24,000 bases of DNA, from the NCBI GenBank assembly GCA_965200905.1, contig CBDAVN010000015.1:112332-136331 (forward strand), in the 5' to 3' direction. Origin of the DNA: Psychrosphaera sp. Its GTDB lineage: Bacteria; Pseudomonadota; Gammaproteobacteria; Enterobacterales; Alteromonadaceae. This document shows positions 5,801 to 23,785 of the stretch, one piece after another. The translations under genes were made by a program, and so were the position numbers. The stretch's first letter is position 1. Each line of letters opens with the position of its first letter. The notes under the pieces are model-generated. The model saw only the letters and a program-made list of their open reading frames with translations, was not told the origin of the DNA and did no database searches.

Positions 5801-6133
5801 AAATGGTTTATTACGACATTCTTTAATCCAGCTATCCAACTTTTGATTGCAATCGTCGGCTGATGAAAAATCAATAACTTCAAATGGAGTATCATTGAAT
5901 TTATCGTAATGCTGAATGCCACTATCACCAAAGACATCAATACCTGACCTGAGCACATCAATGTTATTCACAGCGAAAGTTAAAGCTTGTTCAAACAACT
6001 CAAGTTTAAGGTCACCACGAATATCAGCCATTAGCACTAAGTTATAGAGCGGGCTATCTGGTAAAGTTAACTGCTCAAAATAAATAGGAACCTGAGCTGA
6101 GGTTAGAGGTTGTCGCACATCACGCATTTCCAC
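2852..6133 (-). CDS. Non-ribosomal peptide synthetase, one C-A-T module (1093 aa), first gene of the minus-strand NRPS operon
   Basis: ORF track protein. C domain has HHILTDGFG. A-domain cores are YVIYTSGSTGSPKGV (A3), NAYGPTEA (A5), GELCISGTRLADGY (A6), YRTGDRV (A7), GRTDDQVNIRGFRVELGEIE (A8) and NGKVDRKAL (A10). Carrier domain has FFQSGGHSILAIRL. A helical C-terminal tail of about 55 aa (..LSEQQLDKYLELL) looks like a docking helix, matched by the helical N-terminus of the downstream NRPS. Confidence 0.95.
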   Translation of the reverse strand: MEMRDVRQPLTSAQVPIYFEQLTLPDSPLYNLVLMADIRGDLKLELFEQALTFAVNNIDVLRSGIDVFGDSGIQHYDKFNDTPFEVIDFSSADDCNQKLDSWIKECRNKPFNLGTDRLIKFSLIRLPDERHVWVTKVHHILTDGFGILYLLKQVEAYYRALFNGEDISAVPEPLKFQSYHEQDNAYIDSEQYQQDQEFWQTQLASLPNPLIHKQINKESNEFDSLRVTKTFAPKLQQSLESFARQNKVSLGVVHTAVVALYYWKVKSQPRFMMGIPMHRRPKAYRHMMGMFSGVVPCCFDFNEVNTIGELFQCVKRTIREYMRHANMPVSHIQRLVRKYGRDVDNFVQVDANYISYDTKLRFTDESAHIAYLKGNSQTNPLEISLCDWGEQQPHWINVDFRLDYYTPEQGEALAERLLHIFHQVSNASLETPVAAIELVTPDEKLKLLKPSNQLSNNSDSQNIEQLFSAQAERFGEKIAILDGQQQISYQQLNQRATELASCIHTHAINPPLIGVCLSQGVEFVTAILAVLKAGFGFVPMDPKLPLSRLQAIQQDAGLSLILHSNEGDSQLTQLDCSTLTLMDCKQSPLECKSKSAFIESVNPAYVIYTSGSTGSPKGVVMGHKALSHHIYNAVVEYQYNSKDRILQFASIGSDTAYEQIFTALCSGATLVVRAPDLLSAEKFRNWLLQTEVTSIDLPGSYAREVLPRLAADQEFWQQSHLSRVILGGEIFPPEIIAIWRRYNRFEQCKLFNAYGPTEACITSHLACLDSAESAEIYNSEGSVALGNPVGDSFQYILNEELNLVPPGESGELCISGTRLADGYLGLKDTTDKAFTTLAWSCDGQNRIYRTGDRVRLDQNDQLIFLGRTDDQVNIRGFRVELGEIEKVLQSLPEIESAVVVADQRNEAETRIIAYVTATYSTLSAHYLLQLSASVLAEHMQPSSFVLMEEFPVNANGKVDRKALKLPDIIAAPEHIIPCESATELSLASLWAELLNQESGTISRNANFFQSGGHSILAIRLCSKVEQMFSVEISIAEIFELKTLHRIAAYIDELAELGALIALSSATEVAQQIELSERLNQLSEQQLDKYLELL

Positions 6134-6273
6134 ACTCCTGTAAGAAAATTGGCTTGAATCACTGCTTAACCAAATACTAGAAATTAAGTCTCAAAACTAG
6201 CTAGCAGCGATTACAACTGATGCCTAGTTTGCAAAATTGACTTCGCACTTTACTCCTGCAGTCAATTTTAGAA

Positions 6274-6293
6274 ACCTGCAAGATCTAGCAGTA
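6274..6293. promoter_or_regulatory. lux-box-like 20-bp dyad (ACCTGCAAGATCTAGCAGTA) in the divergent NRPS / aminotransferase-operon promoter region
   Basis: CTGC-N8-GCAG dyad; 14 of 20 positions are self-complementary. It has the ACCTG...CAG architecture of the V. fischeri lux box (ACCTGTAGGATCGTACAGGT). It lies between start codons at 6133 (-) and 6388 (+). A -10-like TAGACT at 6314-6319 would put the dyad centre near -42.5 for the plus operon. TAAAGT (minus strand, 6247-6252) would do about the same for the NRPS operon. Confidence 0.55.
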
Positions 6294-6387
6294 TCGTATT
6301 TCACGGTTATCACTAGACTAAATCTCGATAATTTTTGGAGCACTCCTCCGAAGTTGAGTCCATTACTTTCTAAGACGGGGTCTAGCG

Positions 6388-7692
6388 ATGAACAGGGATA
6401 CACAAAAAAGCAATAACGAAACTGAATTTCACAATATAGAATCAGAGGTCAGGTATTACAGTCGTCAGTACCCAGTCGTATTTGATGGCGCCAAAGATCA
6501 CTTGCTAATAACAGACTCAGGTGAGCAATATATCGACTTCTTATCAGGAGCAGGCTCACTCAATTATGGCCACAATCCCGATAGCATCATGAAAGAAGTA
6601 ATTAGCTATTTACAAAAGTCGAAAGTACTCAATTCACTCGATCTAGATACTAGTGCCAAGCGAGCTTTTATTACTGCTTTGAACGATATTATTCTCAAAC
6701 CTCGAGCCTTAGATTACAAAATTCAGTTTACTGGCCCAACTGGAACTAATGCTATAGAAGCTGCGCTTAAGCTCGCTCGAAAAGTAACTCAACGACAAAA
6801 CATTATCGCCTTTACTAATGGTTTTCATGGCATGACTCTCGGAGCATTAGCTGCTACAGGTAGTAGTGGTAAAAGGCAGGGGGCAGGAATTGGTTTATAT
6901 GGTATTACTCATATGCCATTTGATGGATATTACGGTGAGACAATCAACACCATTGAACTTATAGAACGTCATTTACAGGATACAAGTAGTGGGTTAGAAC
7001 TCCCAGCAGCTTTTCTGGTTGAAACAGTACAAGGCGAAGGAGGCCTTAACACAGCCAGTGACGATTGGTTAAAAGCCCTGTCTCAACTAGCTAAACGCTA
7101 TAACATATTACTTATTATTGATGACATACAGGCTGGCTGTGGTCGTACAGGCAAATTCTTTAGCTTTGAAGGGGCTGGGATCAACCCAGACATCGTCTGT
7201 TTGTCAAAGTCTATCAGTGGCTGTGGGCTGCCAATGGCTATCACCTTATTAAAACCTGAACTTGATATCTGGCAGCCCGGGGAACATAACGGCACATTCC
7301 GTGGCAACAACTTAGCATTTGTTGCGGCTCGAGCAGCGCTTGAATTTTGGAACAACAACATGTTTGAAGCGCAAATTGGTAAAAAATCAGCCCTTGTGCA
7401 TGAACAATTATCAGCAGCAATAGTTGAGCTACCATCCTCTCAAGCTAAAGTTGTAGGAAAAGGGCTATTAAAAGGGGTAGAGTTTCAAGACCCCACTATA
7501 GCCACCCAAGTCATGCATCTAGCGTTTGAACAGGGACTTATCTTAGAAACTTGTGGCTCCTGTGACCAAGTTATTAAATTGATGCCTCCGATCAACATAA
7601 CAGAAAGTGCACTTAATCAAGGCCTTACCATCGCTAGAAATGCTATCACTAAAGCAATAACTCCTCTTATTGAACAAGCAGCAAGTAGTTAA
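6388..7692 (+). CDS. Diaminobutyrate--2-oxoglutarate aminotransferase family (EctB/PvdH/Dat-like class III PLP aminotransferase)
   Basis: 434 aa. The N-terminal IESEVRYYSRQYPVVF signature is typical of DABA aminotransferases. Class III aminotransferase motifs are present: GSLNYGHNP, DDIQAGCGRTG and CLSKSISG (Schiff-base Lys). Confidence 0.85.
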   Translation: MNRDTQKSNNETEFHNIESEVRYYSRQYPVVFDGAKDHLLITDSGEQYIDFLSGAGSLNYGHNPDSIMKEVISYLQKSKVLNSLDLDTSAKRAFITALNDIILKPRALDYKIQFTGPTGTNAIEAALKLARKVTQRQNIIAFTNGFHGMTLGALAATGSSGKRQGAGIGLYGITHMPFDGYYGETINTIELIERHLQDTSSGLELPAAFLVETVQGEGGLNTASDDWLKALSQLAKRYNILLIIDDIQAGCGRTGKFFSFEGAGINPDIVCLSKSISGCGLPMAITLLKPELDIWQPGEHNGTFRGNNLAFVAARAALEFWNNNMFEAQIGKKSALVHEQLSAAIVELPSSQAKVVGKGLLKGVEFQDPTIATQVMHLAFEQGLILETCGSCDQVIKLMPPINITESALNQGLTIARNAITKAITPLIEQAASS

Positions 7693-7713
7693 TAAGCAGC
7701 ATCGGAGAACAAG

Positions 7714-10002
7714 GTGATATTTGAACAAATTGCCAAAACGATTTTACGCCATAGGTTAAAGTCTATTTTACTGACTTTAGCTATCATTGCGGTGCTGTTT
7801 CAGAGCATCGCAAAATTGTCCTTTACTAACGATTATGCAGCCCAATTTGGTGAGAAAAATCCACAATACCTAGCCTATGAAACGCTACTTGCTCAATATG
7901 AAAATACCGATAATATTCTGATCGCAATTAGGCCCTATGATAAAAATGTATTCAGCCAGCAAAGCTTAGAGATAATAACTCGATTAACAAAACTGGCCTG
8001 GAAAACACCTTATTCAAGGAGAGTTGATTCAATTAGTAACTTTGTCTACACCTACGGCGAAGAGGATGATGTCATTTCTGAACCTCTATTTGAACATTAT
8101 CAACAACTAACTGAGCAACAAATCAAAGCAAGGGCTGATTACGCAACTTCAGAGCCAACATTAAAAAATGTTTTGGTGTCTGAAGATGGTAAAACTGCCG
8201 CTGTTAATATCACTGTAGTGCTACCTAAAGCGAACTTTGTCGATGAAGTCTATCAAGCTAACGAATACATAATTTCTACGTTAAAAACCTTACAGCAAGA
8301 GCAACAAAACTTCGACTATTACTTAGCAGGTAAAATTGTCCAAGACAGGGCATTTTTTGATGCTACTGGAGACGAATCAGCAACTCTGTTTCCGATCATG
8401 TTTATCGTAATTTTGCTAGCCATTTTTGCCATTTTGAGAAGCTTAACGGTGACGATTGCTATACTCGCAGTAGTAGTTGGCTCGGTCTTAGCAACGCTCG
8501 GAACCTTGGGTTGGATGAATTTGCAGTTAACACCTGAGGCTCTGACTGCACTAATAATGATAGCCCCTCTGGCAATAGCCGATTGTTTACATATTTACTT
8601 CATCTTTTGTAAAAAGCGAAGAGAAGGTCTTTGCACAGAGCAAGCTTGCATATTTAGCATGCAAAGCAACATAAAACCAATAGTGTTAACAAGTGTCACT
8701 ACCTCCATAGGTTTCCTCAGTATGTTACTAGTAGAGGCTCCTCCCTTTCAACATATGGGCTTAATTGTGGCTATAGGAGTCGGCTATGCACTACTGCTAT
8801 CCTTTATATTATTTGCGCCATTACTGATACTCATTAAACCTTGGCAGACACAGGCACTGTTGATCCCGAAAGTCATTAGTTTATCGGCAAAGATATTTAG
8901 CCACCACTCAAACAGAACAATAGCAGTGCTTTCGTTTCTTATCTTGGTATCACTCATAGGTTTTTGGCAAAACAAAATCGACCAAAATACATCCGAATAT
9001 TTCTCTTCGAAAATGCAATACCGTCAGGATGTAGAATGGATAAATAATAACCTTACGGGTATCAACAACATTCAGTTTTCGATCCATGCTAAACAAGCTC
9101 ATGCCATTACAGACCCTGACTATTTGCAACACCTAGAAGCGTTCAGTAACTGGTTAAGGGCACAGAATGGGGTTGTTTATGTTTCCAGTTTTGCTGACAT
9201 TATGAAACGTCTGAATATGGCTATGCATCAAAATCAGCAACAGTATTACAATTTGCCAACTCAACAAGAACTCTCATCCCAATACTTTACTCTCTATGAA
9301 ATGTCGCTGCCCTTTGGGCTTGGGTTAACCAATAGAGTCGACTTTCAAAAATCGGCAACTTTGGTCACCGTAAATCTGAAAATGTCTTCTAATCAGGAAA
9401 TAGTGCAGTTGGATAAGAGAGCCCAACAATGGATGCAGCAGAACATGCCAGAGTATATGTTTGCTAAAGGAACAGGGCCAGATATCATGTACTCCTATCA
9501 ATTGACCGAGAATATCCCCAGCCTAGTTAAAGGGTTAGCCATATCAATACTGCTGATTGCCGCTATCCTTTGTTACTCTTTGGGCTCTATCAAATTAGGA
9601 CTGATCAGCCTAATACCTAATTTTTTGCCTATTCTGATGGCTTTCGGCTTGTGGGGGTATGTAGATGGAGAAATTGGTTTATCGATTGCAATCGTAATGG
9701 GAATGACACTAGGGATTGTAGTCGATGACACAGTCCACCTAATTAGTAAGTATCGTATCGCTAGGCAACAGCTTAATTATAATCAGTTACAGGCCAGTAA
9801 TTACGCTGTAGAAATGATTGGCCCAGCTGTACTTGCGACAACGTTCATCATAGCTGCAGGCTTCTTAGTACTAACATTTTCACTTTTTACTCCTAGTGTC
9901 GAACTAGGTTTACTTACCGCTCTTATTATCGTTATCGCAGTAATTTTCGATCTGCTAATACTACCAACTATCATTGCAAAAATGGATAATCAACATGCTT
10001 AA
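7714..10002 (+). CDS. RND-superfamily inner-membrane exporter of the MMPL/HpnN (COG1033) type
   Basis: 762 aa with a GTG start at 7714 and GGAG at 7704-7707. Architecture is two blocks of about 6 TM helices, each preceded by a large soluble loop. Its pairing with a LolA-like gene immediately downstream is the usual context for this family. Confidence 0.75.
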   Translation: MIFEQIAKTILRHRLKSILLTLAIIAVLFQSIAKLSFTNDYAAQFGEKNPQYLAYETLLAQYENTDNILIAIRPYDKNVFSQQSLEIITRLTKLAWKTPYSRRVDSISNFVYTYGEEDDVISEPLFEHYQQLTEQQIKARADYATSEPTLKNVLVSEDGKTAAVNITVVLPKANFVDEVYQANEYIISTLKTLQQEQQNFDYYLAGKIVQDRAFFDATGDESATLFPIMFIVILLAIFAILRSLTVTIAILAVVVGSVLATLGTLGWMNLQLTPEALTALIMIAPLAIADCLHIYFIFCKKRREGLCTEQACIFSMQSNIKPIVLTSVTTSIGFLSMLLVEAPPFQHMGLIVAIGVGYALLLSFILFAPLLILIKPWQTQALLIPKVISLSAKIFSHHSNRTIAVLSFLILVSLIGFWQNKIDQNTSEYFSSKMQYRQDVEWINNNLTGINNIQFSIHAKQAHAITDPDYLQHLEAFSNWLRAQNGVVYVSSFADIMKRLNMAMHQNQQQYYNLPTQQELSSQYFTLYEMSLPFGLGLTNRVDFQKSATLVTVNLKMSSNQEIVQLDKRAQQWMQQNMPEYMFAKGTGPDIMYSYQLTENIPSLVKGLAISILLIAAILCYSLGSIKLGLISLIPNFLPILMAFGLWGYVDGEIGLSIAIVMGMTLGIVVDDTVHLISKYRIARQQLNYNQLQASNYAVEMIGPAVLATTFIIAAGFLVLTFSLFTPSVELGLLTALIIVIAVIFDLLILPTIIAKMDNQHA

Positions 10003-10786
10003 GTTTACTTTATCGATCTTATCAATTTTACTTATTTTGCCCGCCTCAATTTATGCTAGTGAACAAGGAGATCCAGTTAGAGGTCTGGAAATAGCTAAAG
10101 CCAGATATAAGAAATTTAATGGTTACTCAGACTACCAAGTTTCGCAAACAATGACCTTATTCAACGCAAACGGTGAAAGCACAGTATTTAAAATGCGGAG
10201 TAAGTCTTTAGCTGTAGATGATGACGGAGATAAAAGTTTATCACTGTTCGACTACCCAAGAGATAAAAAAGGTATTGTAATACTTACCCATACTCGCAGA
10301 TTTGGTGACGATGACAGTATGTTATATCTGCCAGCGTTGAAACGAGTAAAACGGATAGTCGCCAGTAATAAATCAGGACCTTATATGGGTAGTGATTTTG
10401 CCTATGAAGATTTAGGCTCAAAGGAAATAGAAAAGGCTGATTACTTTTATCTAGGGGAAGAACAAATCGACGGACACCCCACCTATAAGATGAAGCGCAT
10501 ACCAAAGTCCCCAAATAGTGGCTACAGCAAAATGTTAGTTTGGACAGATACTGAAAATTTGCGGATATTGCGGGCCGATTACTATGATCGCAAAGGTGCA
10601 TTACTGAAAACGCTAACTTACAGTGACTTTAACCTCCACGAAGAGCGCTTTTGGAGAGCGCACAAGTCAGTGATGGCTAACCACCAAACCAATACTAAAA
10701 CAGAAATTATTATTGATGATATTCAGTTTAACAATGGTTTTTATGCTCAGGAATTCGAGCGAAATGCGCTGAAGCGAGCTCGCTAA
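9995..10786 (+). CDS. Periplasmic LolA-like 'outer membrane lipoprotein-sorting' family protein
   Basis: The ORF track starts at TTG 9974. I prefer ATG 9995, which overlaps the upstream stop (ATGCTTAA) and yields a clean signal peptide MLKFTLSILSILLILPASIYA/SE. It carries the family signature MLYLPALKRVKRIVASNKSGPYMGSDFAYEDL. Confidence 0.75.
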   Translation: MLKFTLSILSILLILPASIYASEQGDPVRGLEIAKARYKKFNGYSDYQVSQTMTLFNANGESTVFKMRSKSLAVDDDGDKSLSLFDYPRDKKGIVILTHTRRFGDDDSMLYLPALKRVKRIVASNKSGPYMGSDFAYEDLGSKEIEKADYFYLGEEQIDGHPTYKMKRIPKSPNSGYSKMLVWTDTENLRILRADYYDRKGALLKTLTYSDFNLHEERFWRAHKSVMANHQTNTKTEIIIDDIQFNNGFYAQEFERNALKRAR

Positions 10787-10797
10787 AGGAAAGTCTT

Positions 10798-12159
10798 ATG
10801 GATAATTCGGCTATTTCGTCAAATAGAACGGACGAACTTTGTGACAATAGTTTATTGAAAAACCGTAACTTTATACTGCACTTTTTCGGTTCAACAATAT
10901 CAGGTTTTGGTGACGCTTTTACGCTTGTAGCGCTTCCGTGGCTTGTACTTGAAGTAACTAACAGTCCAATACATTTAGGTCTCATTATGGCTGCAGCAGG
11001 GGTACCAAGAGCAATAGTGATGCTATTAGGTGGGGCTTTAATTGACAAGGTAGGAGCAGCGGCAACTTTGCTATGGTCACGTGTGATGTTTTTTATTTTG
11101 TTGTCTGTGCTTGCCTCGCTAATTTGGCAGCAAAATCTTGAACTCTGGATGTTGTACGCTTTTTCCTTTGCTTCAGGGGTATTAGGAGCCTTTGCTCTGC
11201 CAGCTGCAGAATCACTGTTGCCTTTACTAGTAAAGCAACTGCAACTACCAAAGGCTAATGGACTGATACTTGGTGGGGAGCAGTTCGGCTACTTGATAGC
11301 ACCTGCTATATCTGGAGGAATGATCTGGTGGGTATCTAATAGTAACCAAGCAACAGGACACGAGTTAGATGGTCTGGCTCTTATCTTTGCTATAGATGCA
11401 CTAACCTTTCTATTCGCCGTTATTTCACTGCTAGCAGTGAAACTAAAGAGACAAAAAAAAGCAACTATCAACTATAGTTTTTGGAAAATGACTATAGATG
11501 GCTTCAGGCATATTAAACAGGATCAATCATTACTGGCATTCACTATATTTTTAATGTTGTTTGGATTTCTCGGCAATGGGCCATTTTTTGGTTTAATGCC
11601 ACTCTTTGCAAAGCAAAATTTTACAGATGGTTCAGCAACATTAGGAGTACTAATGTCAATTAATGGGGCTGGTGCTATTACGGGCATCTTAATTGGGAGC
11701 TTGTTGCGACCCAAGCCTAGCCAATTAGGTCCATTTCTTATGTCAGGATACTTGTTAACAGGTTTAGGTTTTGCCAGCCTTTCAGCTACTGACGGGATGT
11801 TATCGGCTTCAATTACTATATATCTCACAGGTATGGGTTGTAGTTGGTCAATGGTAGCAGGTATTAGTTGGATACAGGTAAGAGTACCAGAGACACTCTT
11901 AGGCCGAGCCATTAGTATCATAATGTTTGCTTTTCTAGGTTTAGTACCTTTATCCATAAGTTTAAATGGATTTATGGCCAACTATTTTAATGTCCAAAAC
12001 GTGATGCTGGTTTACGGTACTTTGTTAGCATTGGTCTCGGTTTTGGCACTCACTCTATCGAGTATTCGCTCTATGGGAGTAACTTCTGGCTCATCAAAAC
12101 AAACATTTCAAGGATCCGGACAACAGGAATTGCTATCAAACGAACAAGGAGTCTTATGA
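10798..12159 (+). CDS. MFS transporter (EntS/DHA3-like efflux pump)
   Basis: 453 aa with AAGGAAA upstream. About 12 predicted TM segments. The N-terminal NRNFILHFFGSTISGFGDAFTLVALPWLVLEVTNSP is typical of the enterobactin-exporter-like MFS subfamily. Confidence 0.8.
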   Translation: MDNSAISSNRTDELCDNSLLKNRNFILHFFGSTISGFGDAFTLVALPWLVLEVTNSPIHLGLIMAAAGVPRAIVMLLGGALIDKVGAAATLLWSRVMFFILLSVLASLIWQQNLELWMLYAFSFASGVLGAFALPAAESLLPLLVKQLQLPKANGLILGGEQFGYLIAPAISGGMIWWVSNSNQATGHELDGLALIFAIDALTFLFAVISLLAVKLKRQKKATINYSFWKMTIDGFRHIKQDQSLLAFTIFLMLFGFLGNGPFFGLMPLFAKQNFTDGSATLGVLMSINGAGAITGILIGSLLRPKPSQLGPFLMSGYLLTGLGFASLSATDGMLSASITIYLTGMGCSWSMVAGISWIQVRVPETLLGRAISIIMFAFLGLVPLSISLNGFMANYFNVQNVMLVYGTLLALVSVLALTLSSIRSMGVTSGSSKQTFQGSGQQELLSNEQGVL

Positions 12160-13040
12160 TGGAGTACGTAATAGATAAAAAACAGCAGATCACTGAGGTT
12201 GAATTTCGCAACCACTATCTAGATAAAAAGCCACTACTGCTAAAAGGTTTCACTACTGAGTCTAGGTGTATACAAAAGTGGTCGCTAGATTATTTTAGCC
12301 AGCACTTTGCTGGCCTGCAAATAGCAACCAAAGAATTTATGCCAGAGCAAATTAAAGTACACCACACTACTATGGGAGAATATATAACGTCACTTCGTAA
12401 CTACTTTGCAAAAATGGAGCAAGGTAAAGCATGCTCTCTCCCACCTTATTGTCATGATATACCTATTTTTAATATAGCCCCAGCACTCATAAAAGATGTT
12501 GAAGGTTTTCCAAGCAATTGGTTACCCAAATGGTACCAAACGAATTGGTGGCTTTTTTGCCAGTTTTTTATGTCTGTCGAAGGCAGCGTTACCCCATTAC
12601 ACTTCGATACTTTACGCACTCATAATCTATTTTTTCAGGTGCAAGGACGCAAACGCTTTACTCTCATCCCGTGGGAAAAGAGTAAAGCGTGTGATCGCAG
12701 AGGGTGGCGTTGGTTTAACGCAGATCCAGAAGCTTCGGAACATAATAACCCTCACAATTTTGATAGTGTTCCACGAGTTATCGTTGACGTTGAACCTGGC
12801 GACATACTCTATATGCCAGCCGGAACACTTCACCATGTCAGAAGTCTCGATTTCTGTATCTCGTTCAATATAGATTTTCACACCCGAGCAAGTTTGCTCC
12901 AAACTGTCCCCGCTATAGCAAATGGTATGCCGCTGGAAAATATTTACTACAACTTACTAAGTGCACTAGGGGTCGTATGTGGTTTGCCTCAAAAGTTGCT
13001 GTTTCCACTTTATAGAAAATATCTAAATTACATCTCTTAA
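12156..13040 (+). CDS. JmjC/cupin-8 type Fe(II)/2-oxoglutarate-dependent oxygenase
   Basis: 294 aa. The start ATG overlaps the MFS stop (ATGA), with AAGGAG upstream. An HxD...H facial triad is visible (TPLHFDTLRTHN ... PAGTLHHVRS), and FFQVQGRKRFTLIP is typical of the JmjC double-stranded beta-helix. Confidence 0.7.
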   Translation: MMEYVIDKKQQITEVEFRNHYLDKKPLLLKGFTTESRCIQKWSLDYFSQHFAGLQIATKEFMPEQIKVHHTTMGEYITSLRNYFAKMEQGKACSLPPYCHDIPIFNIAPALIKDVEGFPSNWLPKWYQTNWWLFCQFFMSVEGSVTPLHFDTLRTHNLFFQVQGRKRFTLIPWEKSKACDRRGWRWFNADPEASEHNNPHNFDSVPRVIVDVEPGDILYMPAGTLHHVRSLDFCISFNIDFHTRASLLQTVPAIANGMPLENIYYNLLSALGVVCGLPQKLLFPLYRKYLNYIS

Positions 13041-13061
13041 AAAATATGTGCGATTCGACCA

Positions 13062-14315
13062 ATGTTGTCCTGTCGCACTATGAAATTAAACTTTAACCAT
13101 GCATTTAATATTATGAAAAATATTCCCCCCTTTAACTTTATTATACTAATCAACTTGATCTTTATTCCTTTAATAAGTAAAGCAAGTACAAATGACTTTT
13201 CAGGTTCAATAGAAGCGCAAAGTTTTATTTTTACTGAATCTCCCCGTTTGGCTGCTCAACCAAGTACTCAATTATCCACTATTGCCGAGCTAGAGTGGTA
13301 CCAAGATTGGAACTCGGGTAGCAGCAGCCTTACATTTAAACCTTATCTAAGGGTTGATAATCGAGATAGCGAACGTAACTTGCTTGATATAAGAGAGCTA
13401 GCTTGGAGATATACACAAAAAAACTGGGAGCTTGGTTTTGGTATATATAAGGTATTTTGGGGGCAAACAGAATCACAACATAGAGTCGATATTATTAACC
13501 AGACAGACACCCTCGCGAGTGTAGATGGTGAAGAAAAGCTCGGGCAACCCATGGTACAACTGTCTTTTTACCGAGATTGGGGCGCACTAGAGTTTTATTG
13601 GCTACCTATATTTAGACCACAACAATTTGCCTCAGAAAAAAGTCGATTTATTCCCGAACTTAGCATCACAAAAGAAAACTCCTACCAATCAGCAAGGAAA
13701 GATAAAGCAATGGATTGGGCTATTCGATGGAGCCAGATGTTAGGAGATCTTGAGCTAGGTCTATCTCACTTCTACGGCACTACAAGGTCTCCTCAGCTAA
13801 ATAAGATTAATCAAGATAACGAAGTGCTATATCAGCCTTACTATAATCGCATTGAACAAAGTGGATTAGATCTGCTCTACTTATGGAATGAGTGGGTTTG
13901 GAAATTAGAGGCAATTCACAGAAGTTTTAAAGGTGGTGCATTTACGGCGGTAACAACAGGGTTCGAATATACTCAAATAGACTTGTTCCAGTCAGCCGTA
14001 GATCTAGGCTGGGTAGTCGAATATTCGACTAACTCCAACCCCAACTTATCAGGCGACATTGCTCAGAATGATATTTTTATTGGTAACCGACTTACATTTA
14101 ATGATGCGGCCGATAGTGAACTGCTGTTCGGCATTAACCAAGATCTAGGTGACTCTTCTTCATACTCAGTAATATTAGAGGGCAGTACCCGCTTAAGTGG
14201 TAGCCTTAGAGCAACATTAAACCTTTATCTATTCAATGCCAGTGACCCTCTAGACCCAATGCATTACTTGGATAAGGATGACTTTATGCAATTAAATCTA
14301 GAGTACTTTTTCTGA
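13062..14315 (+). CDS. Secreted protein, probable outer-membrane beta-barrel (family not recognised)
   Basis: 417 aa. In-frame ATGs at 13080 and 13113 are alternative starts; 13113 gives a canonical signal peptide MKNIPPFNFIILINLIFIPLISKA/ST. It has alternating amphipathic strands and a C-terminal aromatic end ...LNLEYFF, typical of BAM substrates. Confidence 0.6.
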   Translation: MLSCRTMKLNFNHAFNIMKNIPPFNFIILINLIFIPLISKASTNDFSGSIEAQSFIFTESPRLAAQPSTQLSTIAELEWYQDWNSGSSSLTFKPYLRVDNRDSERNLLDIRELAWRYTQKNWELGFGIYKVFWGQTESQHRVDIINQTDTLASVDGEEKLGQPMVQLSFYRDWGALEFYWLPIFRPQQFASEKSRFIPELSITKENSYQSARKDKAMDWAIRWSQMLGDLELGLSHFYGTTRSPQLNKINQDNEVLYQPYYNRIEQSGLDLLYLWNEWVWKLEAIHRSFKGGAFTAVTTGFEYTQIDLFQSAVDLGWVVEYSTNSNPNLSGDIAQNDIFIGNRLTFNDAADSELLFGINQDLGDSSSYSVILEGSTRLSGSLRATLNLYLFNASDPLDPMHYLDKDDFMQLNLEYFF

Positions 14316-15065
14316 ACACACTCTGCTGCTTGTTAGTAGTTGTGAAACTATATATTCTTGGTCATCGTCAATAAAAAAGTGATCACCATTAAAAGTTTTA
14401 ATAGAAGTTTGACCTGTCGTTAATTCGAACCATTCACGCATTTCTTTATCAGATATACAGTCCTCATTACCAAGCCATGCATCAATAGGACAGTTCAGTA
14501 ATTCACAGTGGCTAAACTGGTACTGTTCATTTAGTCGAAAATCAGCACGTATTATAGGCATAAAAAATGCCATCAACTCGTCACTTTCATATATTCTCGC
14601 AGGAGTGCCATTTAACTTTTTCAGCTCAGCTAAAAAAAGATTATCAGGCAGCGACGAAATCGCTGTAGAAGTCAATGGTAAATTAGGCGGCCGTTTAGCT
14701 GACACTATCAACTTTCTGGGACTCTGTAGCCTAGCTCCCTGAATTCTCATAGCTAGCTCATAGCTAATTAACGCTCCTAAGCTATGGCCAAAAAAAACAT
14801 AAGGAATATCCAGCACACTTTGAATATCTTTATACAGAGCTTCAATAAGTTGTGACATTTCTGAACATAAAGGTTCAACAAAACGTCGCTCTCTGCCAGG
14901 GTAACATATAGCAGTTAGCTCAATATCTTTAGGTAGAAAATTAGACCAATTTCTAAATACTGCTGGACTACCTCCTGCATATGGAAAACAGAATATTCTT
15001 AGCTTCGCATCAGGATTCGGATTAAAAGTATCTAACCAGATTGAACTACCGTAATACTTTGACAT
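14298..15065 (-). CDS. Type II (editing) thioesterase of NRPS/PKS clusters
   Basis: 255 aa. It has FCFPYAGGS near the N-terminus, the GHSLGA nucleophile elbow and a C-terminal GDHFF (His of the triad). Its 3' end overlaps the convergent 13062-14315 gene by 18 bp. Confidence 0.9.
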   Translation of the reverse strand: MSKYYGSSIWLDTFNPNPDAKLRIFCFPYAGGSPAVFRNWSNFLPKDIELTAICYPGRERRFVEPLCSEMSQLIEALYKDIQSVLDIPYVFFGHSLGALISYELAMRIQGARLQSPRKLIVSAKRPPNLPLTSTAISSLPDNLFLAELKKLNGTPARIYESDELMAFFMPIIRADFRLNEQYQFSHCELLNCPIDAWLGNEDCISDKEMREWFELTTGQTSIKTFNGDHFFIDDDQEYIVSQLLTSSRVCSEKVL

Positions 15066-15163: not shown

Positions 15164-15904
15164 TTATAAAGAAGGCTTAACTAAGCCTTGCATAATTGCT
15201 TTAGCAACAGCATGTTGCCGGTTAGATGCGTTAAGCTTATTCATAACACTACTCAAATGAAACACAGCTGTACGTTCTGAAATATTCAAAATGGTAGATA
15301 TTTCCCAGGCTGTCTTCCCCTCACAAGCCCAAAAAATACACTCTTTTTCTCGAGATGACAGTTTAACTTCTTGTTTAGCAAAAGACTCTATATTTATACG
15401 TAGGTAGTTGTTGAGTAGTCTCGTTGCAAAGCTTTGTGCACTAGCCAAGCGATTTGTAAAACCATCTGCAAACACATTACTGTCTGACACAACTAAACTC
15501 AAAGTAGCAATCTCACCACTAGGTGCCTTCATTGGTATTGAGATACCATTTACTAACCCATATTGTTTGGCTTTTTCCATTACTTTGAGATGTTCAGCAC
15601 TACTGTAACCTTCCGACTGAATCAGTTGATCCCATCGAATAGGTACCGTATTTTCGAAGCAATAGTTCACCACGGGGTCATTTTTCTGTAGGTTTTCTGA
15701 AAAGTAGATATCAGTCCAATCCTTTGGATAGTTACTTAATACACCAAGTTTTGGTGATGTTAGCGTTTCAGTATCACAAACACCAAAAAGAAAAAAATCA
15801 GCCCCCAATAGTTTGCATAGTTTTTCACAAATATCCTTGAGCTGTTTTTTATCTACAGCGGTATCAAGATCATCAATTAGCCGCACAAATTCAATATTAT
15901 TCAT
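15164..15904 (-). CDS. luxR: LuxR-family AHL-responsive transcriptional regulator (autoinducer-binding domain + C-terminal HTH)
   Basis: 246 aa with GAGGGAA upstream. Conserved AHL-pocket residues are visible (KDWTDIYF, NDPVV, IRW, GLVNGISIP). The C-terminal LuxR-type HTH reads LSSREKECIFWACEGKTAWEISTILNISERTAVFHLSSVMNKLNASNRQHAV. Confidence 0.9.
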   Translation of the reverse strand: MNNIEFVRLIDDLDTAVDKKQLKDICEKLCKLLGADFFLFGVCDTETLTSPKLGVLSNYPKDWTDIYFSENLQKNDPVVNYCFENTVPIRWDQLIQSEGYSSAEHLKVMEKAKQYGLVNGISIPMKAPSGEIATLSLVVSDSNVFADGFTNRLASAQSFATRLLNNYLRINIESFAKQEVKLSSREKECIFWACEGKTAWEISTILNISERTAVFHLSSVMNKLNASNRQHAVAKAIMQGLVKPSL

Positions 15905-16373
15905 GGTTCCCTCAGACGTTTATTCTTATTGTCATTTCCTTTGCCACATTAAACTTCTCAGACAAACTATTAGCCTTGTATGCTATGTTGAATAAGTTAC
16001 AGTCAAGATAAGATCAAAACAATACTTTTTGTTAACCAAATGAAAATAAAGTTAATTATGGACCACCAAAAATTAAAATATTGCCATTAGAGCTATTTCC
16101 ATTCCCTAGCAAATTTAACGTGAAATAGTATTTCAATATAAATTTATTCCAAAATATTGACTTCCGCCTTAACCAACTATAAATAAAGGGATAGGGCTGT
16201 TCAAACACTTAACATTAGCAATACTCCATCGTGCGAGTTCCAATGTTCTCTTTTTTATGGTTGATTCCTACAACCATCAAAACTTAATTTCTGGGCGAAC
16301 TATTATACTTCTGGGTTGATTTGTATCCATTGAAAAAAACAAGCGATAAAAGATACTGATAACATAAATAAAC

Positions 16374-16388
16374 AAGCCATGACGGCTT
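16374..16388 (-). terminator. Weak hairpin (AAGCC-N5-GGCTT) followed on the minus strand by a T-rich tract; possible terminator of the 307-aa gene
   Basis: Seen by eye about 100 nt downstream of the stop at 16488. The stem is only 5 bp (plus 3 bp after a bulge), and the T-tract is interrupted (TTATTTATGTT). Confidence 0.25.
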
Positions 16389-16487
16389 TGTATTTAGCAT
16401 AGCTAGAAGGTAGACAGCTAATCTTTTTAGCTTTGACAAGCTCCGATACCGTAACAAGTTGCAGCACTAATCCTCATTAGTAAATGA

Positions 16488-17378
16488 TTAAGGCTTTGAT
16501 TGTAGGTGTACTATTAACCCTTGGGTTACCGTTTTTTGATAATTTAAATGCCAGTTTCCCACACGGTCAACAAAAGCAGAAAGCTCGCTGATAACTGCCA
16601 AATCATTTGATTTAGGTAACGCCAATACAATAGCTTCATCAATCAGTTTGTTTTTGATACAAGTAAATAGAAAGTCAATGTCGGTAAATAATGAAACTAC
16701 AGCCTTCTGCTTAGAACCTGTATATTTTTGTAACTTCTGTAAACTGGAAATTGAAGCAATTTCATTGCGTTCAATGACATCATTCATAATATTAAAGCAG
16801 GGAGAGAAATATAAAATATCAGCTTGATTAAAAGTATAAAATATAGCAGAAGACTCAGCTAACGGCTTTAGGGCACTCTCAATGAAACCAAAACTGCTCT
16901 GCATAAGAGAAATTGTGTTGGCATCGAAATTTCCCTGCCAAACCGATATACCAATAGTCCAAGGTCTCCCTCTGAGCTTCAGTGATAGTGCACCAGATAC
17001 CAACCCTTTAGCATGAGGCCTTGACTGTGGAAAAAAGCTGATCTGCCCAGAGTAACTTGAGCTCCAATCGCGAAATATTGGGTCACGGAGATAGTCTGGC
17101 AATTTGTGTGCAATATGAAGTTGTTCACAATTTGATCGAGTAATCATATCCAGCAGCATTTTTGTATTGCAGTTTTCGATAATTGGTTCGCAAGAACAGT
17201 AAAGATAGGCAATTTTCTCACTGTGTTGATTTATCAAATAACTGCTGCGATGTTTTTCGAATCCCGTCATACCAAATTGACTGCCAAGTATGTGGCCATT
17301 TTGATCAACTGCAGTAAATGCAAAGCCAGCACGTAAAGAAATAGAGCAGGCAAGTGACAAAGTATAATCGGATAACAT
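16488..17378 (-). CDS. Hypothetical protein between the luxR- and luxI-family genes (no recognisable motif)
   Basis: The ORF track gives 307 aa from a TTG at 17411. The first ATG is at 17378 (MLSDYTL..., 296 aa). It is a long uninterrupted ORF in an otherwise AT-rich region and has no signal peptide or TM segments. I could assign no family. Confidence 0.6.
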   Translation of the reverse strand: MLSDYTLSLACSISLRAGFAFTAVDQNGHILGSQFGMTGFEKHRSSYLINQHSEKIAYLYCSCEPIIENCNTKMLLDMITRSNCEQLHIAHKLPDYLRDPIFRDWSSSYSGQISFFPQSRPHAKGLVSGALSLKLRGRPWTIGISVWQGNFDANTISLMQSSFGFIESALKPLAESSAIFYTFNQADILYFSPCFNIMNDVIERNEIASISSLQKLQKYTGSKQKAVVSLFTDIDFLFTCIKNKLIDEAIVLALPKSNDLAVISELSAFVDRVGNWHLNYQKTVTQGLIVHLQSKP

Positions 17379-17497
17379 TTTTGACAATGGTTGCGACAAC
17401 GGAGGAAACAATTTACTACAAGCCTAAGCCCGTTTGCGCAAACACAGGCAATAACTAAAATGGCCAGCAAAACTATCAAATCAAGACAACAGAAGAA

Positions 17498-17517
17498 ACC
17501 TGTAACTTCTTACAGTT
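17498..17517. promoter_or_regulatory. lux-box-like dyad ACCTGTAACTTCTTACAGTT (CTGTAA-N4-TTACAG)
   Basis: It has 6-bp perfect arms, and 14 of 20 positions are self-complementary. It lies in the 247-bp divergent region between the 307-aa gene and the luxI-family gene. Its position suits a minus-strand promoter: GATAGT -10-like at 17472-17477 puts the box centre at about -42. Confidence 0.55.
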
Positions 17518-17576
17518 ACCATAAAAATAAAATTTAAGTGATTGTTATCAAAATAAAAAATAAGAAAATAGAGACA

Positions 17577-17596
17577 TACCGCAAGATCTGACAGGT
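17577..17596. promoter_or_regulatory. Second, less symmetric lux-box-like site TACCGCAAGATCTGACAGGT upstream of the luxI-family gene
   Basis: The right half ACAGGT is a perfect lux-box half-site. It shares the 9-mer GCAAGATCT with the box at 6274-6293. The centre is about 72 bp upstream of the luxI ATG, and a -10-like TAGTCT at 17619-17624 would put it near -44. The left half-site is poor. Confidence 0.4.
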
Positions 17597-17658
17597 AACC
17601 ATAGCCTTATTTCCTCACTAGTCTTTTTGAAACAAACTTACGACACGGACAGTGAGAA

Positions 17659-18237
17659 ATGAATAAAGTATATTTTGCGACGTCAAACCAACAAAACCAC
17701 GATTTAATTGAACAGATATATAGCTTACGGCATCAGACGTTTATAAAGAGGCTTGGTTGGGATATTACATCTGATAAGGGATTGGAGCAGGATAAATTTG
17801 ACTTTCTTGATCCTGTTCATATCGCAGTTACCGATACAAAAGACATAGTAAAAGGATGCTGGCGTGCCCTGCCTACGACTGGAGACTACATGTTGAAATC
17901 AGTCTTCCCACAATTATTACAAGGTGAAGATGCTCCCCAACAGGAGGATATTTGGGAGATAAGCAGACTCGCAGTACAAAAGTACTCTTCAAAGCCAGAA
18001 CATGGTTACATTAGTAACATATCTCTCGACCTAGTTCGTTCCTTTTATGACTTTGCTCAACTACATAACATTAGTTCATTTGTAACTGTCACTACAGTCG
18101 CTTGCGAACGAATGCTGAGACAATTAAACGTTACTTTGCGCAGAATGGGACAAGGCAAAGCACTGTGGATAGGCAAAGAATTATCAGTGGCTATTAAGAT
18201 CGAGGTAAATGAATCGTTAAAGATTTACAGAAACTGA
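17659..18237 (+). CDS. luxI: Acyl-homoserine-lactone synthase (LuxI family)
   Basis: 192 aa. It carries LuxI-family conserved blocks: LRHQTFIKRLGWDI, EQDKFD, CWRALPT and WEISRLAV. Confidence 0.9.
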   Translation: MNKVYFATSNQQNHDLIEQIYSLRHQTFIKRLGWDITSDKGLEQDKFDFLDPVHIAVTDTKDIVKGCWRALPTTGDYMLKSVFPQLLQGEDAPQQEDIWEISRLAVQKYSSKPEHGYISNISLDLVRSFYDFAQLHNISSFVTVTTVACERMLRQLNVTLRRMGQGKALWIGKELSVAIKIEVNESLKIYRN

Positions 18238-20458: not shown

Positions 20459-21166
20459 CTACTTCTTATATCTTTCAAATATTTTATTAATGATCACAGA
20501 AACAATTTCATAATCACCAACAGCGCCACCATGTAAACAGTTGGAGCCATGAGCCATTATATTTCTAGATCCCGGTAATGTTTCGCACAATACATCTAAA
20601 TAATTGTAATCATATTGAACGCCAGCATAATCTATCTCTGCTTCATCCCACTCGTATGATGATATGTTCTCTTCACTCATTTTTTTTGAAACGTAAAAGC
20701 GATATTCCCTTTCAGCTTTTCGAGCTCTTCCGTCTCGCCATACTTTGAAATCTTCATTCCTGATCAAGTTATGTTCAGAAATATATGCTAAGTTCAGCTT
20801 TAATCCCCTTGAAAATCGCCCAGTTCCTTTCGGTAACTGCTTATTCTTATTTTTGCGATAATTCTCTAGCTCTACAATACCAATGCACTCACGAATTGCT
20901 TGCTCAAGCGTTACAAACAATTGATGTTGTGCTACAGGAAAAAACCTATAAACATAAAACGCGTGTAGGAATAAATTTCGAGCTGTATCAAATTGAATAA
21001 CTAACTCTTCTGGGACATGAGAACCCAACTCATACTTGGCTATCGCTTGATGAAATTGCTCAATCCCAGTGTCACCAAATTCAATATTGCGCACATCGGG
21101 TAACAAAATATTTGACGGTGTTCTAAAGGCCTCAGCTGGAAACTCATCAATGTTTAATTTATTCAT
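20459..21166 (-). CDS. Stand-alone HEPN-like protein (Rx4H motif)
   Basis: The ORF track starts at TTG 21199. I prefer ATG 21166 (MNKLNIDEF, GGAA 6 nt upstream; 235 aa). The motif LPGSRNIMAHGSN (R-N-x3-H) sits about 35 residues from the C-terminus. It is preceded by long helices (VPEELVIQFDTARNLFLHAFYVYRFFPVAQHQLFVTLEQAIRE), as in HEPN/DUF4145/Abi-type four-helix bundles. I saw no CARF, SAVED or cNMP-binding motif. Confidence 0.55.
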   Translation of the reverse strand: MNKLNIDEFPAEAFRTPSNILLPDVRNIEFGDTGIEQFHQAIAKYELGSHVPEELVIQFDTARNLFLHAFYVYRFFPVAQHQLFVTLEQAIRECIGIVELENYRKNKNKQLPKGTGRFSRGLKLNLAYISEHNLIRNEDFKVWRDGRARKAEREYRFYVSKKMSEENISSYEWDEAEIDYAGVQYDYNYLDVLCETLPGSRNIMAHGSNCLHGGAVGDYEIVSVIINKIFERYKK

Positions 21167-21306
21167 TATTATTTCCATTCCTTGAGTTCGAAGAGCCAAA
21201 TCAATGTTGCTCTACTCTCAATTCGATTGACATTAACCATATCGATTCTCTTATAAAGGATTAATATCTAATACAAATCCTCACTCCTCTCGTACAATAA
21301 GGCTCT

Positions 21307-23052
21307 TCAATCTCGCTCAGGCGGCTTTTGTTTACATGAATATCTGCTGTAAAGAGTAGGTATAAAACCTAAACTTAAATCTGAATACTTCAATGATTTT
21401 CTTAACTTATCATGCGTCAGTTTAAGCTCATATTTAGCCATTAAAGGTAAACTTTCCAGTGTTGGGGGAGATTTCCTTTGATCATATAAAACCCACATTT
21501 TAACATTGTAATCTTGCCCTGAAACATCTGAGATATCTTCTTTTATATGCTCAAGAACATCGTCTCTTTTGCTGTGCTTTGATTGTTGAACAAAGTCTCG
21601 AATATCCTCTAGAAAAACATCATCTGATAAAAAAAACTCACAATAAAATCGAGCTTGAGAGAACAAGTAATTGATAGAATCTGAATAACCATTTTTTTTA
21701 ACATGGATAATATTGCCTTTTTTATCATCAGACATTTCAAAAATATCACAGAACTCTTTGTTTTTATTACCAGTACCTATTCTTAACTTTGCTTGATCGA
21801 ATAAGATCGCATTATCATTCAAAGCACAATATTTGGTATTAAAAAGCTCTTCTCTATTTTGCTTTCTACTTGTGCAAAATATATCAAGCCCATGATATCT
21901 CGTATCTACGGCTTCAACCTTAATTTGATTTTCAACAAAATCTGATACTTGCTTATAAAAGTCGGGATCAACTTTTCTCCACTCTCCAGAAGTTAATATA
22001 TAACAGTCATCTTTTAACTCTATTTCAGCAACTAAACAGTCATATATACACCATTTACGATGATGTAAAATCTGACCTTCTTCATGAGAGTATGCATAAA
22101 CATATTTTTTAGTTATATCTGCAAGTTTAATATCGGAGATATTTCGCTTTACTTCTTCTTTTAAATCTTGCACTCGAATGTGGGAGATAATGTTATTTTC
22201 TTTTTTAGGATAATTTGTATAGGTGAAGCTAAACTCATCATCAGGTATGAATTCAGGAATAGATAAGTGTATTTTTGCATAACTTTCGCTTCGAATTAGC
22301 TTTAATAATTCTTCGTCTAGTTCAGAAACTTTCTCTTCGGGTACAGCTGTTAGATTAGGGTAATTAGGAAACCACTTTTTATAATCCTCGCTTCTATAAG
22401 CAAGCAAACTATTAGAAATAAAATCTAACAGCTTATCCCACGTAAATTTATCAGAACCAAGCGCTTTCACAGTAAGACAATCCTTTCCTTGTAAAGTAAT
22501 ATTTGAGTTTGAATTTAAGTGAGCAGATATATATTGAAGCAACTCAGTTTCTGACATCCCTAAATCGAATACTTCAGAAGGCCGACTAAGTTGTCGATCT
22601 ATCATTTGCGAAGTCGAAGCTCGTATAGCACTCTTTGCTTGTCTGACTTCTTCATTTCCACAGAGGTTCATTGCTACTTTGATGCCAAAATCAGACTCCA
22701 TTTGTTTTTTCTTAATCCAAGAACTTCCTCTAGTGCCAAATGCAGCCGCGCAAACTCTGGAGCCTAAATTTATTAATAGTAGTCCACTGCCCCTTTCAGA
22801 AGATGTATTAAAGTTAACTTCTTCTTCACTTGATAGTGACTCATTAACAAAATCCAACCATGGTGGATTATCATGAGAGTTAATGAAAACCTTCTGACAA
22901 AAAAATTTAATATTAAACTGGTTCACAGAAAAGTGTCTGATCTTAAAAGATCCAGTTTCGACACTTGGGATTTTTTCCACATCTACAACATCATCAAAAC
23001 CTTTACCATCTTTTGAAAGGTATATAGTTACCTTACCTAGACAAAATTCCAC
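21307..23052 (-). CDS. TIGR04141/DUF6119-like 'sporadically distributed' protein with C-terminal PD-(D/E)xK-like motif
   Basis: 581 aa with a GTG start at 23052 and GGAAG 7 nt upstream. My recollection of the family features: short N-terminal beta-rich region (KVTIYLSK..F.D), AAAFGTRGSSWI...DFGIKVAMN block, central CYILTSGEWRKVDPDFYKQV block, and C-terminal EFCDIFEMS...GNIIHVKK...INYLFSQARF (D..(E/H)xK nuclease-like followed by a conserved helix). Confidence 0.6.
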   Translation of the reverse strand: MEFCLGKVTIYLSKDGKGFDDVVDVEKIPSVETGSFKIRHFSVNQFNIKFFCQKVFINSHDNPPWLDFVNESLSSEEEVNFNTSSERGSGLLLINLGSRVCAAAFGTRGSSWIKKKQMESDFGIKVAMNLCGNEEVRQAKSAIRASTSQMIDRQLSRPSEVFDLGMSETELLQYISAHLNSNSNITLQGKDCLTVKALGSDKFTWDKLLDFISNSLLAYRSEDYKKWFPNYPNLTAVPEEKVSELDEELLKLIRSESYAKIHLSIPEFIPDDEFSFTYTNYPKKENNIISHIRVQDLKEEVKRNISDIKLADITKKYVYAYSHEEGQILHHRKWCIYDCLVAEIELKDDCYILTSGEWRKVDPDFYKQVSDFVENQIKVEAVDTRYHGLDIFCTSRKQNREELFNTKYCALNDNAILFDQAKLRIGTGNKNKEFCDIFEMSDDKKGNIIHVKKNGYSDSINYLFSQARFYCEFFLSDDVFLEDIRDFVQQSKHSKRDDVLEHIKEDISDVSGQDYNVKMWVLYDQRKSPPTLESLPLMAKYELKLTHDKLRKSLKYSDLSLGFIPTLYSRYSCKQKPPERD

Positions 23053-23314
23053 AATGCACTTCCAAAGTTAACTAAAAATCACTTTACCACTAATAAAAAG
23101 AAAAATTTAAGAATAGCTATGAAGCTTTTTATAGCTCAACTAATTATCGCTTTCTGATCTAATTGTTAGATAAAGATACATTTTTTAATTATTCATCAAA
23201 CTCAAGCTCTTATTCAAATTTAAACGACAAACTAGTTGATTAGGCTCAATATATGTGCAAAATAAATCACTTTACTACAGAGCGTACTAGGCTATTTAAG
23301 ATCGATTAAAATTT

Positions 23315-23785
23315 ATGAGTAGTATCCCTCATCTGTCTAACTTATATAACGATGGTTGGTGGGGATTCATTGTTATTGTAATAATGATTATTCTTTCAGG
23401 AGTAATGTTATCGAATAGCTTTCAAATCCCGCAATCAACGAATCAGAAACTAGTCGTTAACTTAAAAATACTTAAGCTACAAGCAACTGGTAGTGAAGTC
23501 GTGCTTGGTCTGGTTATATATCTGCTCGTAACTTTTTTAACAGGTTTATTCGGTGGCAAAGAACTGACTACATTTATAAATTGCCAATTTGGCCTTACAT
23601 TCTCTCAGTTCAATTCAATATGTATTTTAGGTGGAGTGTTATCTTTAATTGTAAGTGCAGTTGTTTTTTTTATTAAAAACCTACCTGTAATTAGAGACAG
23701 CAAGAACCTCAACAACCAAGAACTCTATGAAGCTCAATTAAAAAAATTATCAGCCTCCAGATCCCAAGGAGAAAAACGTGAATAA
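23315..23785 (+). CDS. Membrane protein, about 3 TM helices with a charged C-terminal tail
   Basis: 156 aa. Hydrophobic segments are WWGFIVIVIMIILSGVMLS, VVLGLVIYLLVTFLTGLFGG and ICILGGVLSLIVSAVVFFI. The RBS is weak. The stop overlaps the start of the downstream ATPase gene. Confidence 0.5.
   Translation: MSSIPHLSNLYNDGWWGFIVIVIMIILSGVMLSNSFQIPQSTNQKLVVNLKILKLQATGSEVVLGLVIYLLVTFLTGLFGGKELTTFINCQFGLTFSQFNSICILGGVLSLIVSAVVFFIKNLPVIRDSKNLNNQELYEAQLKKLSASRSQGEKRE

Follow-up and report, generated by a model that had tools for sequence, protein, structure and literature searches.

We analysed a 24,000-nucleotide stretch of DNA from Psychrosphaera sp. (GenBank assembly GCA_965200905.1, contig CBDAVN010000015.1, positions 112,332 to 136,331 of the forward strand), called the window below, in which an original prediction made from the sequence alone had singled out the gene at positions 21307-23052. 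This gene encodes a member of the DUF6119/TIGR04141 family, and our preferred reading, to which we give a probability of about 0.55, is that the protein is an autonomous nuclease borne by mobile elements, most likely acting on DNA, that works in defence independently of the HEPN-like and cyclase-like gene pair downstream of it. DUF6119/TIGR04141 is a large and horizontally mobile family for which we now propose a candidate active site (E401, E433, D436, H450, K452 and Q466), with the Hachiman nuclease HamA as its structural anchor and with recurrent embedding in type I restriction-modification (R-M) operons. An anonymous DUF thereby becomes a concrete candidate for a single-gene defence nuclease, and the gene in the window becomes separable from the downstream pair, each being a subject of its own.

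The assignment to TIGR04141 had originally been made from a set of sequence blocks, and all of these blocks are present in the 581-amino-acid (aa) translation: DFGIKVAMN at residues 121-129, ILTSGEWRKVDPDFY at 351-365, EFCDIF at 433-438, IIHVKK at 448-453 and YLFSQ at 462-466. Comparison with hidden Markov models bore the assignment out, with scores far above both curated cut-offs. Pfam DUF6119 (PF19614) is matched over its whole profile (positions 1-524 of 524) at 335.2 bits, the cut-off being 27 (E = 9e-100), and NCBIfam TIGR04141, the 'sporadically distributed protein' family, at 248.4 bits, where the cut-off is 35 (E = 1.2e-73); judged by these profile scores, the family match is far beyond chance. 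A GGAAG sequence lies 8 nt 5′ of the GTG start of the open reading frame (ORF), the size and N-terminus of the protein are consistent with those of its homologues (570-585 aa), and an identical protein is recorded in a 1.3-Mb metagenome contig.

A homologue search returned more than 250 relatives, the best 120 of which share 40-57% identity with the window protein, are nearly all 570-590 aa long and belong to Gamma- and Alphaproteobacteria. When 1.84 billion representatives were searched exhaustively with a profile, 2,440 clusters (at 50% identity) were retrieved with E <= 1e-3, of which 468 reached E <= 1e-30. Most are 515-620 aa long, and the match runs over their full length. On these searches, DUF6119/TIGR04141 is a large family with a single conserved architecture. 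The window protein falls within a gammaproteobacterial/alphaproteobacterial subclade in which position 450 is H, N or Q; it resembles the family in length, architecture and every invariant residue, has no feature that sets it apart, and is an ordinary, complete member of a catalogued but uncharacterised bacterial family. In agreement with the original statement that no demonstrated function was known for the family, the literature that we searched on DUF6119, TIGR04141 and PF19614 held no functional report, a mention of the family there notes its association with the mobilome, and PADLOC-DB 2.0, which has no model for the family, returned no family for the window protein at E <= 0.1.

The case for a nuclease is carried by the C-terminal domain. 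Residues 305-581, modelled separately, gave a confident prediction (predicted local distance difference test score, pLDDT, 91.5; predicted template modelling score, pTM, 0.83), which we read together with a conservation alignment of 85 diverse members (about 18-52% identity) that includes copies from an Enterococcus plasmid, from a Pseudomonas phage and from within R-M operons. G123, W358, E401, E433, D436, K452 and Q466 are invariant across this alignment, and all of them are present in the window protein; D419, H450, C435, C339 and E343 are conserved in at least 90% of the members. The Enterococcus, phage and R-M-embedded members retain the active-site residues, and within the close clade position 450 is H in 27, N in 12 and Q in 7 cases. 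Conservation of the predicted catalytic residues had been named at the outset as a check on the likeness to a PD-(D/E)xK site, and D436, K452, E401 and E433 came through it without a single substitution in the 85 homologues.

The predicted secondary structure elements of the model follow one another in the order alpha-beta-beta-beta-alpha-beta, as in PD-(D/E)xK nucleases, with the putative catalytic aspartate on beta2 and the xK on beta3 (Table 1), and E433 or E401 could supply the second carboxylate. The Q466xxxY470 arrangement on the helix that follows the xK strand resembles the QxxxY motif of RecB/Cas4/Exo5-type nucleases, although Y470 is not kept outside the close DUF6119 clade.

Searched with Foldseek against the PDB, the C-terminal domain found HamA as its best match (8vx9_A; E = 0.027, probability 0.77, 256 aligned columns, template modelling (TM) score 0.36), followed by EndoMS/NucS, EcoO109I, SfsA, Exo5, RecU and Card1, all of which are PD-(D/E)xK enzymes. 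The full-length model, searched against BFVD, also matched a 'HamA C-terminal domain-containing protein' (probability 0.75). Experiments have established HamA of Hachiman as a D-ExK effector DNase, which the HamB helicase holds in check (PMC12278908). Nearly all of HamA (DUF1837; PDB 8VX9/8VXY) is covered by the match to the C-terminal 277 residues; its core is of the PD-(D/E)xK type, with the D...xK on the beta2-beta3 hairpin, as is predicted for DUF6119, and both proteins are found in defence or mobile contexts. The two share no sequence similarity and differ in that HamA has the motif E-x-K whereas DUF6119 has H/N/Q-x-K, and in that HamA pairs with HamB whereas DUF6119 instead carries a fused N-terminal extension of 300 aa. 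DUF1837 gave no match at E <= 10 for 22 DUF6119 C-terminal domains, no HamA match was obtained with PADLOC, and a HamB-type helicase is neither found beside the window gene nor conserved across 46 DUF6119 loci. EndoMS/NucS, EcoO109I, Exo5, RecU, SfsA and Card1 are recurrent but weak matches (E 0.05-0.6), and DUF6119 has neither the iron-sulfur cysteines nor other features specific to those PD-(D/E)xK families. Pfam searches at E <= 10 with 22 C-terminal and 10 N-terminal halves found no family besides DUF6119, and sequence searches of the protein and the family profiles against PDB sequences gave matches at chance level. Because the residues are invariant and are correctly placed in a confident model whose top structural neighbours are nearly all PD-(D/E)xK enzymes, the nuclease-like nature of the C-terminus is supported, but not proven.

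The full-length AlphaFold model (AF2; mean pLDDT 83.9) consists of a beta-rich region (residues 1-135), a segment spanning residues 135-173, an alpha/beta middle (176-300) and the C-terminal domain. Invariant or near-invariant residues also occur in the N-terminal half (W65, F122-G123, N129, Q154, G189 and P266). They are dense in the segment 135-173 (R137, Q138, D152-R153-Q154, P158, G165 and E170), whose low model confidence (Table 1) suggests that it may become ordered only upon binding a partner, DNA or another subunit. Sliding-clamp matches of the full-length model in the PDB were rejected as noise (TM score about 0.07) and gave nothing usable.

To characterise the surroundings of the family, we compared 46 genome loci with 10-kb flanks and clustered their 794 neighbour ORFs all against all. 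No neighbour cluster represents a conserved partner, none being present in more than 11 of the 46 loci; the commonest are tyrosine integrases (11/46), LysR regulators (6/46) and serine recombinases (4/46). This accords, as do the gaps flanking the gene and the upstream region of its own, with the stand-alone half of the original proposal, in which the protein was either a single-gene defence protein or the third component of a cassette. A scan of the nearest neighbours (two genes on each side, 149 proteins, with output listing families and not proteins) found type II methyltransferases and endonucleases, type IV restriction enzymes, HNH and ATPase-Toprim families, as well as zeta toxin, DarT1-NADAR, Xre-type helix-turn-helix regulators, integrases, ParB and a type IV secretion system (T4SS) coupling protein, and an association of DUF6119 with defence islands is qualitatively supported.

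Twenty plasmid records carry a family member, and 12 of these plasmids are conjugative. Among phage records, only that of Pseudomonas phage vB_PaeS-D14B has a homologue (locus L055, 5800-7509; 30% identity); it lies at the genome end, flanked on either side by an integrase gene, a position typical of accessory cargo. In V. parahaemolyticus the gene stands at the edge of an integrase-bounded island, in Shewanella baltica it adjoins an ADP-ribosyltransferase, umuDC and Tn3, and in Aeromonas it has inserted on its own after argH; on further plasmids it lies near patatin/AAA ATPase, KAP-like NTPase, DUF3800 and AAA/UvrD genes.

The most informative setting is that of a distant clade (21-24% identity to the window protein, with the active-site residues intact), which is located inside type I R-M operons on three plasmids, of Paracoccus, Actibacterium and Mesorhizobium, in the order hsdS-hsdM-hsdS-DUF6119-hsdR-SprT-like metalloprotease and with overlapping start and stop codons. 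These copies stand between hsdS and hsdR and are translationally coupled, whereas no hsd genes lie near the window gene. TgvAB of V. cholerae VPI-2, which is embedded in a type I R-M operon, has been shown to be anti-phage (PMC11411939), and genes in such embedded positions have repeatedly turned out to be defence genes (PMC11411939; Payne et al. 2024). The embedded defence candidates of Payne et al. 2024 do not include a mention of DUF6119. PrrC and TgvAB occupy an operon slot like that of the distant DUF6119 clade, but PrrC and GmrSD-like proteins have no sequence relation to DUF6119.

In the mechanism that we propose, the C-terminal 277 residues would form a HamA-like domain of the PD-(D/E)xK type with a metal-dependent phosphodiesterase centre composed of D436, H450-x-K452, E433/E401 and, on the next helix, Q466, and this centre would cleave nucleic acid, probably DNA. 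Because no partner protein is conserved, we infer that the N-terminal half restrains the nuclease: its 300 residues, including the segment 135-173, would bind or sense a substrate or trigger and gate the nuclease, playing for the C-terminal domain the part that HamB plays for HamA. The gene would travel as single-gene cargo of islands, plasmids and prophages and be directed against phages, plasmids or other mobile elements. A wider proposal, plausible yet tentative, is that the family constitutes a previously unrecognised, widespread single-protein immune nuclease. In it, a HamA-like effector would be fused to a sensor or clamp module of about 300 aa that takes the place of the HamB helicase, and type I R-M operons would have taken up one clade as a second defensive layer.

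A different role, which we consider unlikely, would be service to the mobile element itself, be it in recombination, in the processing of replication intermediates or in competition with rivals, by means of an RdgC-like DNA-binding module at the N-terminus. Phage RdgC-family 'exonuclease/recombination-associated' proteins were indeed the top BFVD matches of the full-length model (E about 6e-3, probability 0.95-0.97; three further RdgC matches within the top 40), in an output that does not show which part of the query was aligned, and RdgC, at about 290 aa, is near the size of the DUF6119 N-terminal half. Integrases, recombinases, relaxase/T4SS genes and Tn3 are frequently adjacent, and a PHROG family exists for DUF6119 (PHROG 18579, function not assigned, matching the window protein at 2.7e-63). 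The RdgC link nevertheless fails at every sequence-level test. Pfam RdgC (PF04381) matched none of 10 N-terminal halves at E <= 10, and hhalign comparisons of DUF6119 with E. coli RdgC and with an RdgC alignment reached a probability of at most 0.7%; that alignment comprised 10 sequences, 7 of them phage homologues. A homologue search with RdgC gave only relatives at least 85% identical. Among the 50 best PDB matches to the full-length model there is no RdgC structure either. The likeness, structural only, is marginal and may serve as a lead. The family is moreover tied to no particular integrase or replication module, and embedding in type I R-M operons suits defence better than element housekeeping.

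Still less probable, in our estimate, is that the C-terminal domain has the fold of a nuclease without being one, and acts as a binding or regulatory module or as another hydrolase, with the activity residing elsewhere. The observations that favour this reading are also those that weigh against ours. Two residues before K452, where the canonical motif has an acidic D/E, the protein has H (at least 90% family-wide) or N/Q, and every PD-(D/E)xK structural match has E > 1e-3, none being significant in any library. The original comparison of the C-terminus to a PD-(D/E)xK site finds support in the invariant D and K, in the predicted fold and in the identity of the top Foldseek matches, but neither in the motif, which reads D...(H/N/Q)xK, nor in the significance of any match. 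Against the non-nuclease reading, active D...QxK variants occur among other PD-(D/E)xK enzymes, the MspJI family being one case. Inactive HamA-like domains are known as well, such as AbpA's C-terminal domain (PMC12278908). Two further points speak for catalysis: E401, E433, D436, K452 and Q466 are strictly invariant in very divergent members, as is typical of catalytic residues, and no other catalytic domain was detected in the DUF6119 protein.

The HEPN-like and cyclase-like genes downstream (Table 1) had been given these labels in the original prediction, and no library confirms either label above threshold. The 246-aa protein carries an Rx4H motif but has no Pfam, NCBIfam or PADLOC match. 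The 248-aa protein matches Guanylate_cyc below threshold (E = 0.014; 15.4 bits, where the cut-off is 21.9) and is matched by PHROG 23933 at 3e-27. The described arrangement was found as stated: the DUF6119 gene shares a strand with both ORFs, and the gap to the HEPN-like gene measures 140 bp from the ATG at 21166 used in the public assembly, or 107 bp from the TTG of the longest ORF, with only a weak hairpin in it. A consensus scan of the gap found neither a terminator nor a promoter, and the genes on its two sides may be co-transcribed.

The pair varies in its company. Its closest copy (loci L048/L049; 93%/82% identity to the window pair) is preceded in L048 by a gene on the same strand for a 506-aa coiled-coil protein (3700-5220), which we considered as a distant DUF6119 and found on comparison to be unrelated, and is followed there by a RelE/MqsA-like toxin-antitoxin pair, which suggests that the slot is a variable hotspot. 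About 30 homologues of the cyclase-like protein at roughly 50% identity were found in Colwellia, Rheinheimera and others; their partners vary (HEPN-like in L048, a small PDDEXK_5 protein in L050, others in L051 and L053), and the cyclase-like protein is perhaps a signalling enzyme whose effectors can be exchanged.

That DUF6119 is the third component of a cassette with this pair, for instance a nuclease effector under the control of a cyclase-made nucleotide signal, is highly improbable and on comparative genomics largely refuted: the common strand, the short gap free of consensus signals, the single low-GC stretch that holds all three genes, the varied small neighbours with which cyclase-like homologues do pair and the one locus (L023) where, 4.4 kb downstream of DUF6119, there is a weak match to the cyclase-like protein (29% identity, E = 2e-11) stand against a HEPN-like gene in 0 of 46 and an adjacent cyclase-like gene in 0 of 46 DUF6119 loci, DUF6119 in none of the 7 loci that carry homologues of the cyclase-like gene, the unrelated gene upstream of the closest pair copy and the lack of a recognisable nucleotide-sensor domain in DUF6119. 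Because no conserved co-occurrence was seen in either direction, we interpret the adjacency as co-location in a variable island and not as a conserved cassette, and this half of the original alternative does not stand.

Table 1. Coordinates and basis of the features described; window positions unless a residue or another locus is named.
Feature	Position	Strand	Basis or detail
DUF6119/TIGR04141 family gene, intact	21307..23052	-	581 aa, GTG start, Pfam and NCBIfam matches
N-terminal half, residues 1-304, family-specific, beta-rich plus alpha/beta	22141..23052	-	AF2, pLDDT mostly 80-95
Residues 135-173, strongly conserved, pLDDT 27-50	22534..22650	-	AF2 model compared with family alignment
C-terminal domain, residues 305-581, HamA-like with PD-(D/E)xK-like fold (predicted)	21310..22140	-	AF2 and Foldseek
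Putative active-site stretch	21643..21852	-	Model secondary structure and 85-member conservation
E401	Opens helix 401-411		C-terminal model
D419	After strand 415-417		C-terminal model
E433-F-C-D436	Enters strand 437-440		C-terminal model
H450-V-K452	Strand 446-453, hairpin partner		C-terminal model
Q466-x-x-x-Y470 (Y470 in close clade only)	Helix 457-476		C-terminal model
Last element, no listed residue	Strand 515-524, after helix 457-476		C-terminal model
Gap to HEPN-like gene	21167..21306	-	Weak A/U-rich hairpin 21256-21282, region z-score -1.9
HEPN-like gene, 246 aa	20459-21199	-	Rx4H motif (RNIMAH)
Cyclase-like gene, 248 aa	19705-20451	-	Sub-threshold Guanylate_cyc match
Upstream intergenic region, 262 bp, divergent from ORF 23315-23785 (+)	23053..23314	.	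Promoter scan
R-M-embedded DUF6119 copies	L058 4830-6557; L060 4152-5873; L062 4830-6497		Three plasmids

The window between 19000 and 24000 has a GC content of 31-36%, compared with about 40% elsewhere, and a strongly negative GC skew, consistent with horizontal acquisition of this stretch. Upstream of the DUF6119 gene, a sigma-70-like site at 23217-23188 (-) reads TTGAAT-18-AATAAT; it is a consensus match only, in a region that holds fewer promoter-like sites than shuffled sequence. The divergent ORF 23315-23785 (+) is predicted to encode a 156-aa membrane protein, and none of the 46 DUF6119 loci has a homologue of it. In the public contig, the end of this gene overlaps the start of a gene for a 346-aa ParA/CbiA-like ATPase (L047, 8235-9738), and the two probably form one operon. 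Past the window edge, the public contig (L047, 1-9738) goes on with ParA-like, RadC and DUF6641 genes, together with one that encodes more than 1,559 aa.

The rest of the window contains genes of other kinds. A secondary-metabolite cluster at 2852-15065 comprises a nonribosomal peptide synthetase (NRPS) module of condensation-adenylation-thiolation (C-A-T) type (1093 aa), a class-III aminotransferase, an MMPL/RND-like exporter, a LolA-like protein, a major facilitator superfamily (MFS) transporter, a JmjC/cupin hydroxylase, a 417-aa protein without a family and a thioesterase. Between this NRPS cluster and the low-GC island, at 15164-18237, lies a quorum-sensing pair around an unannotated 307-aa ORF (16488-17411, -), made up of a LuxR-type gene (15164-15904, -) and a LuxI-type acyl-homoserine lactone (AHL) synthase gene (17659-18237, +).

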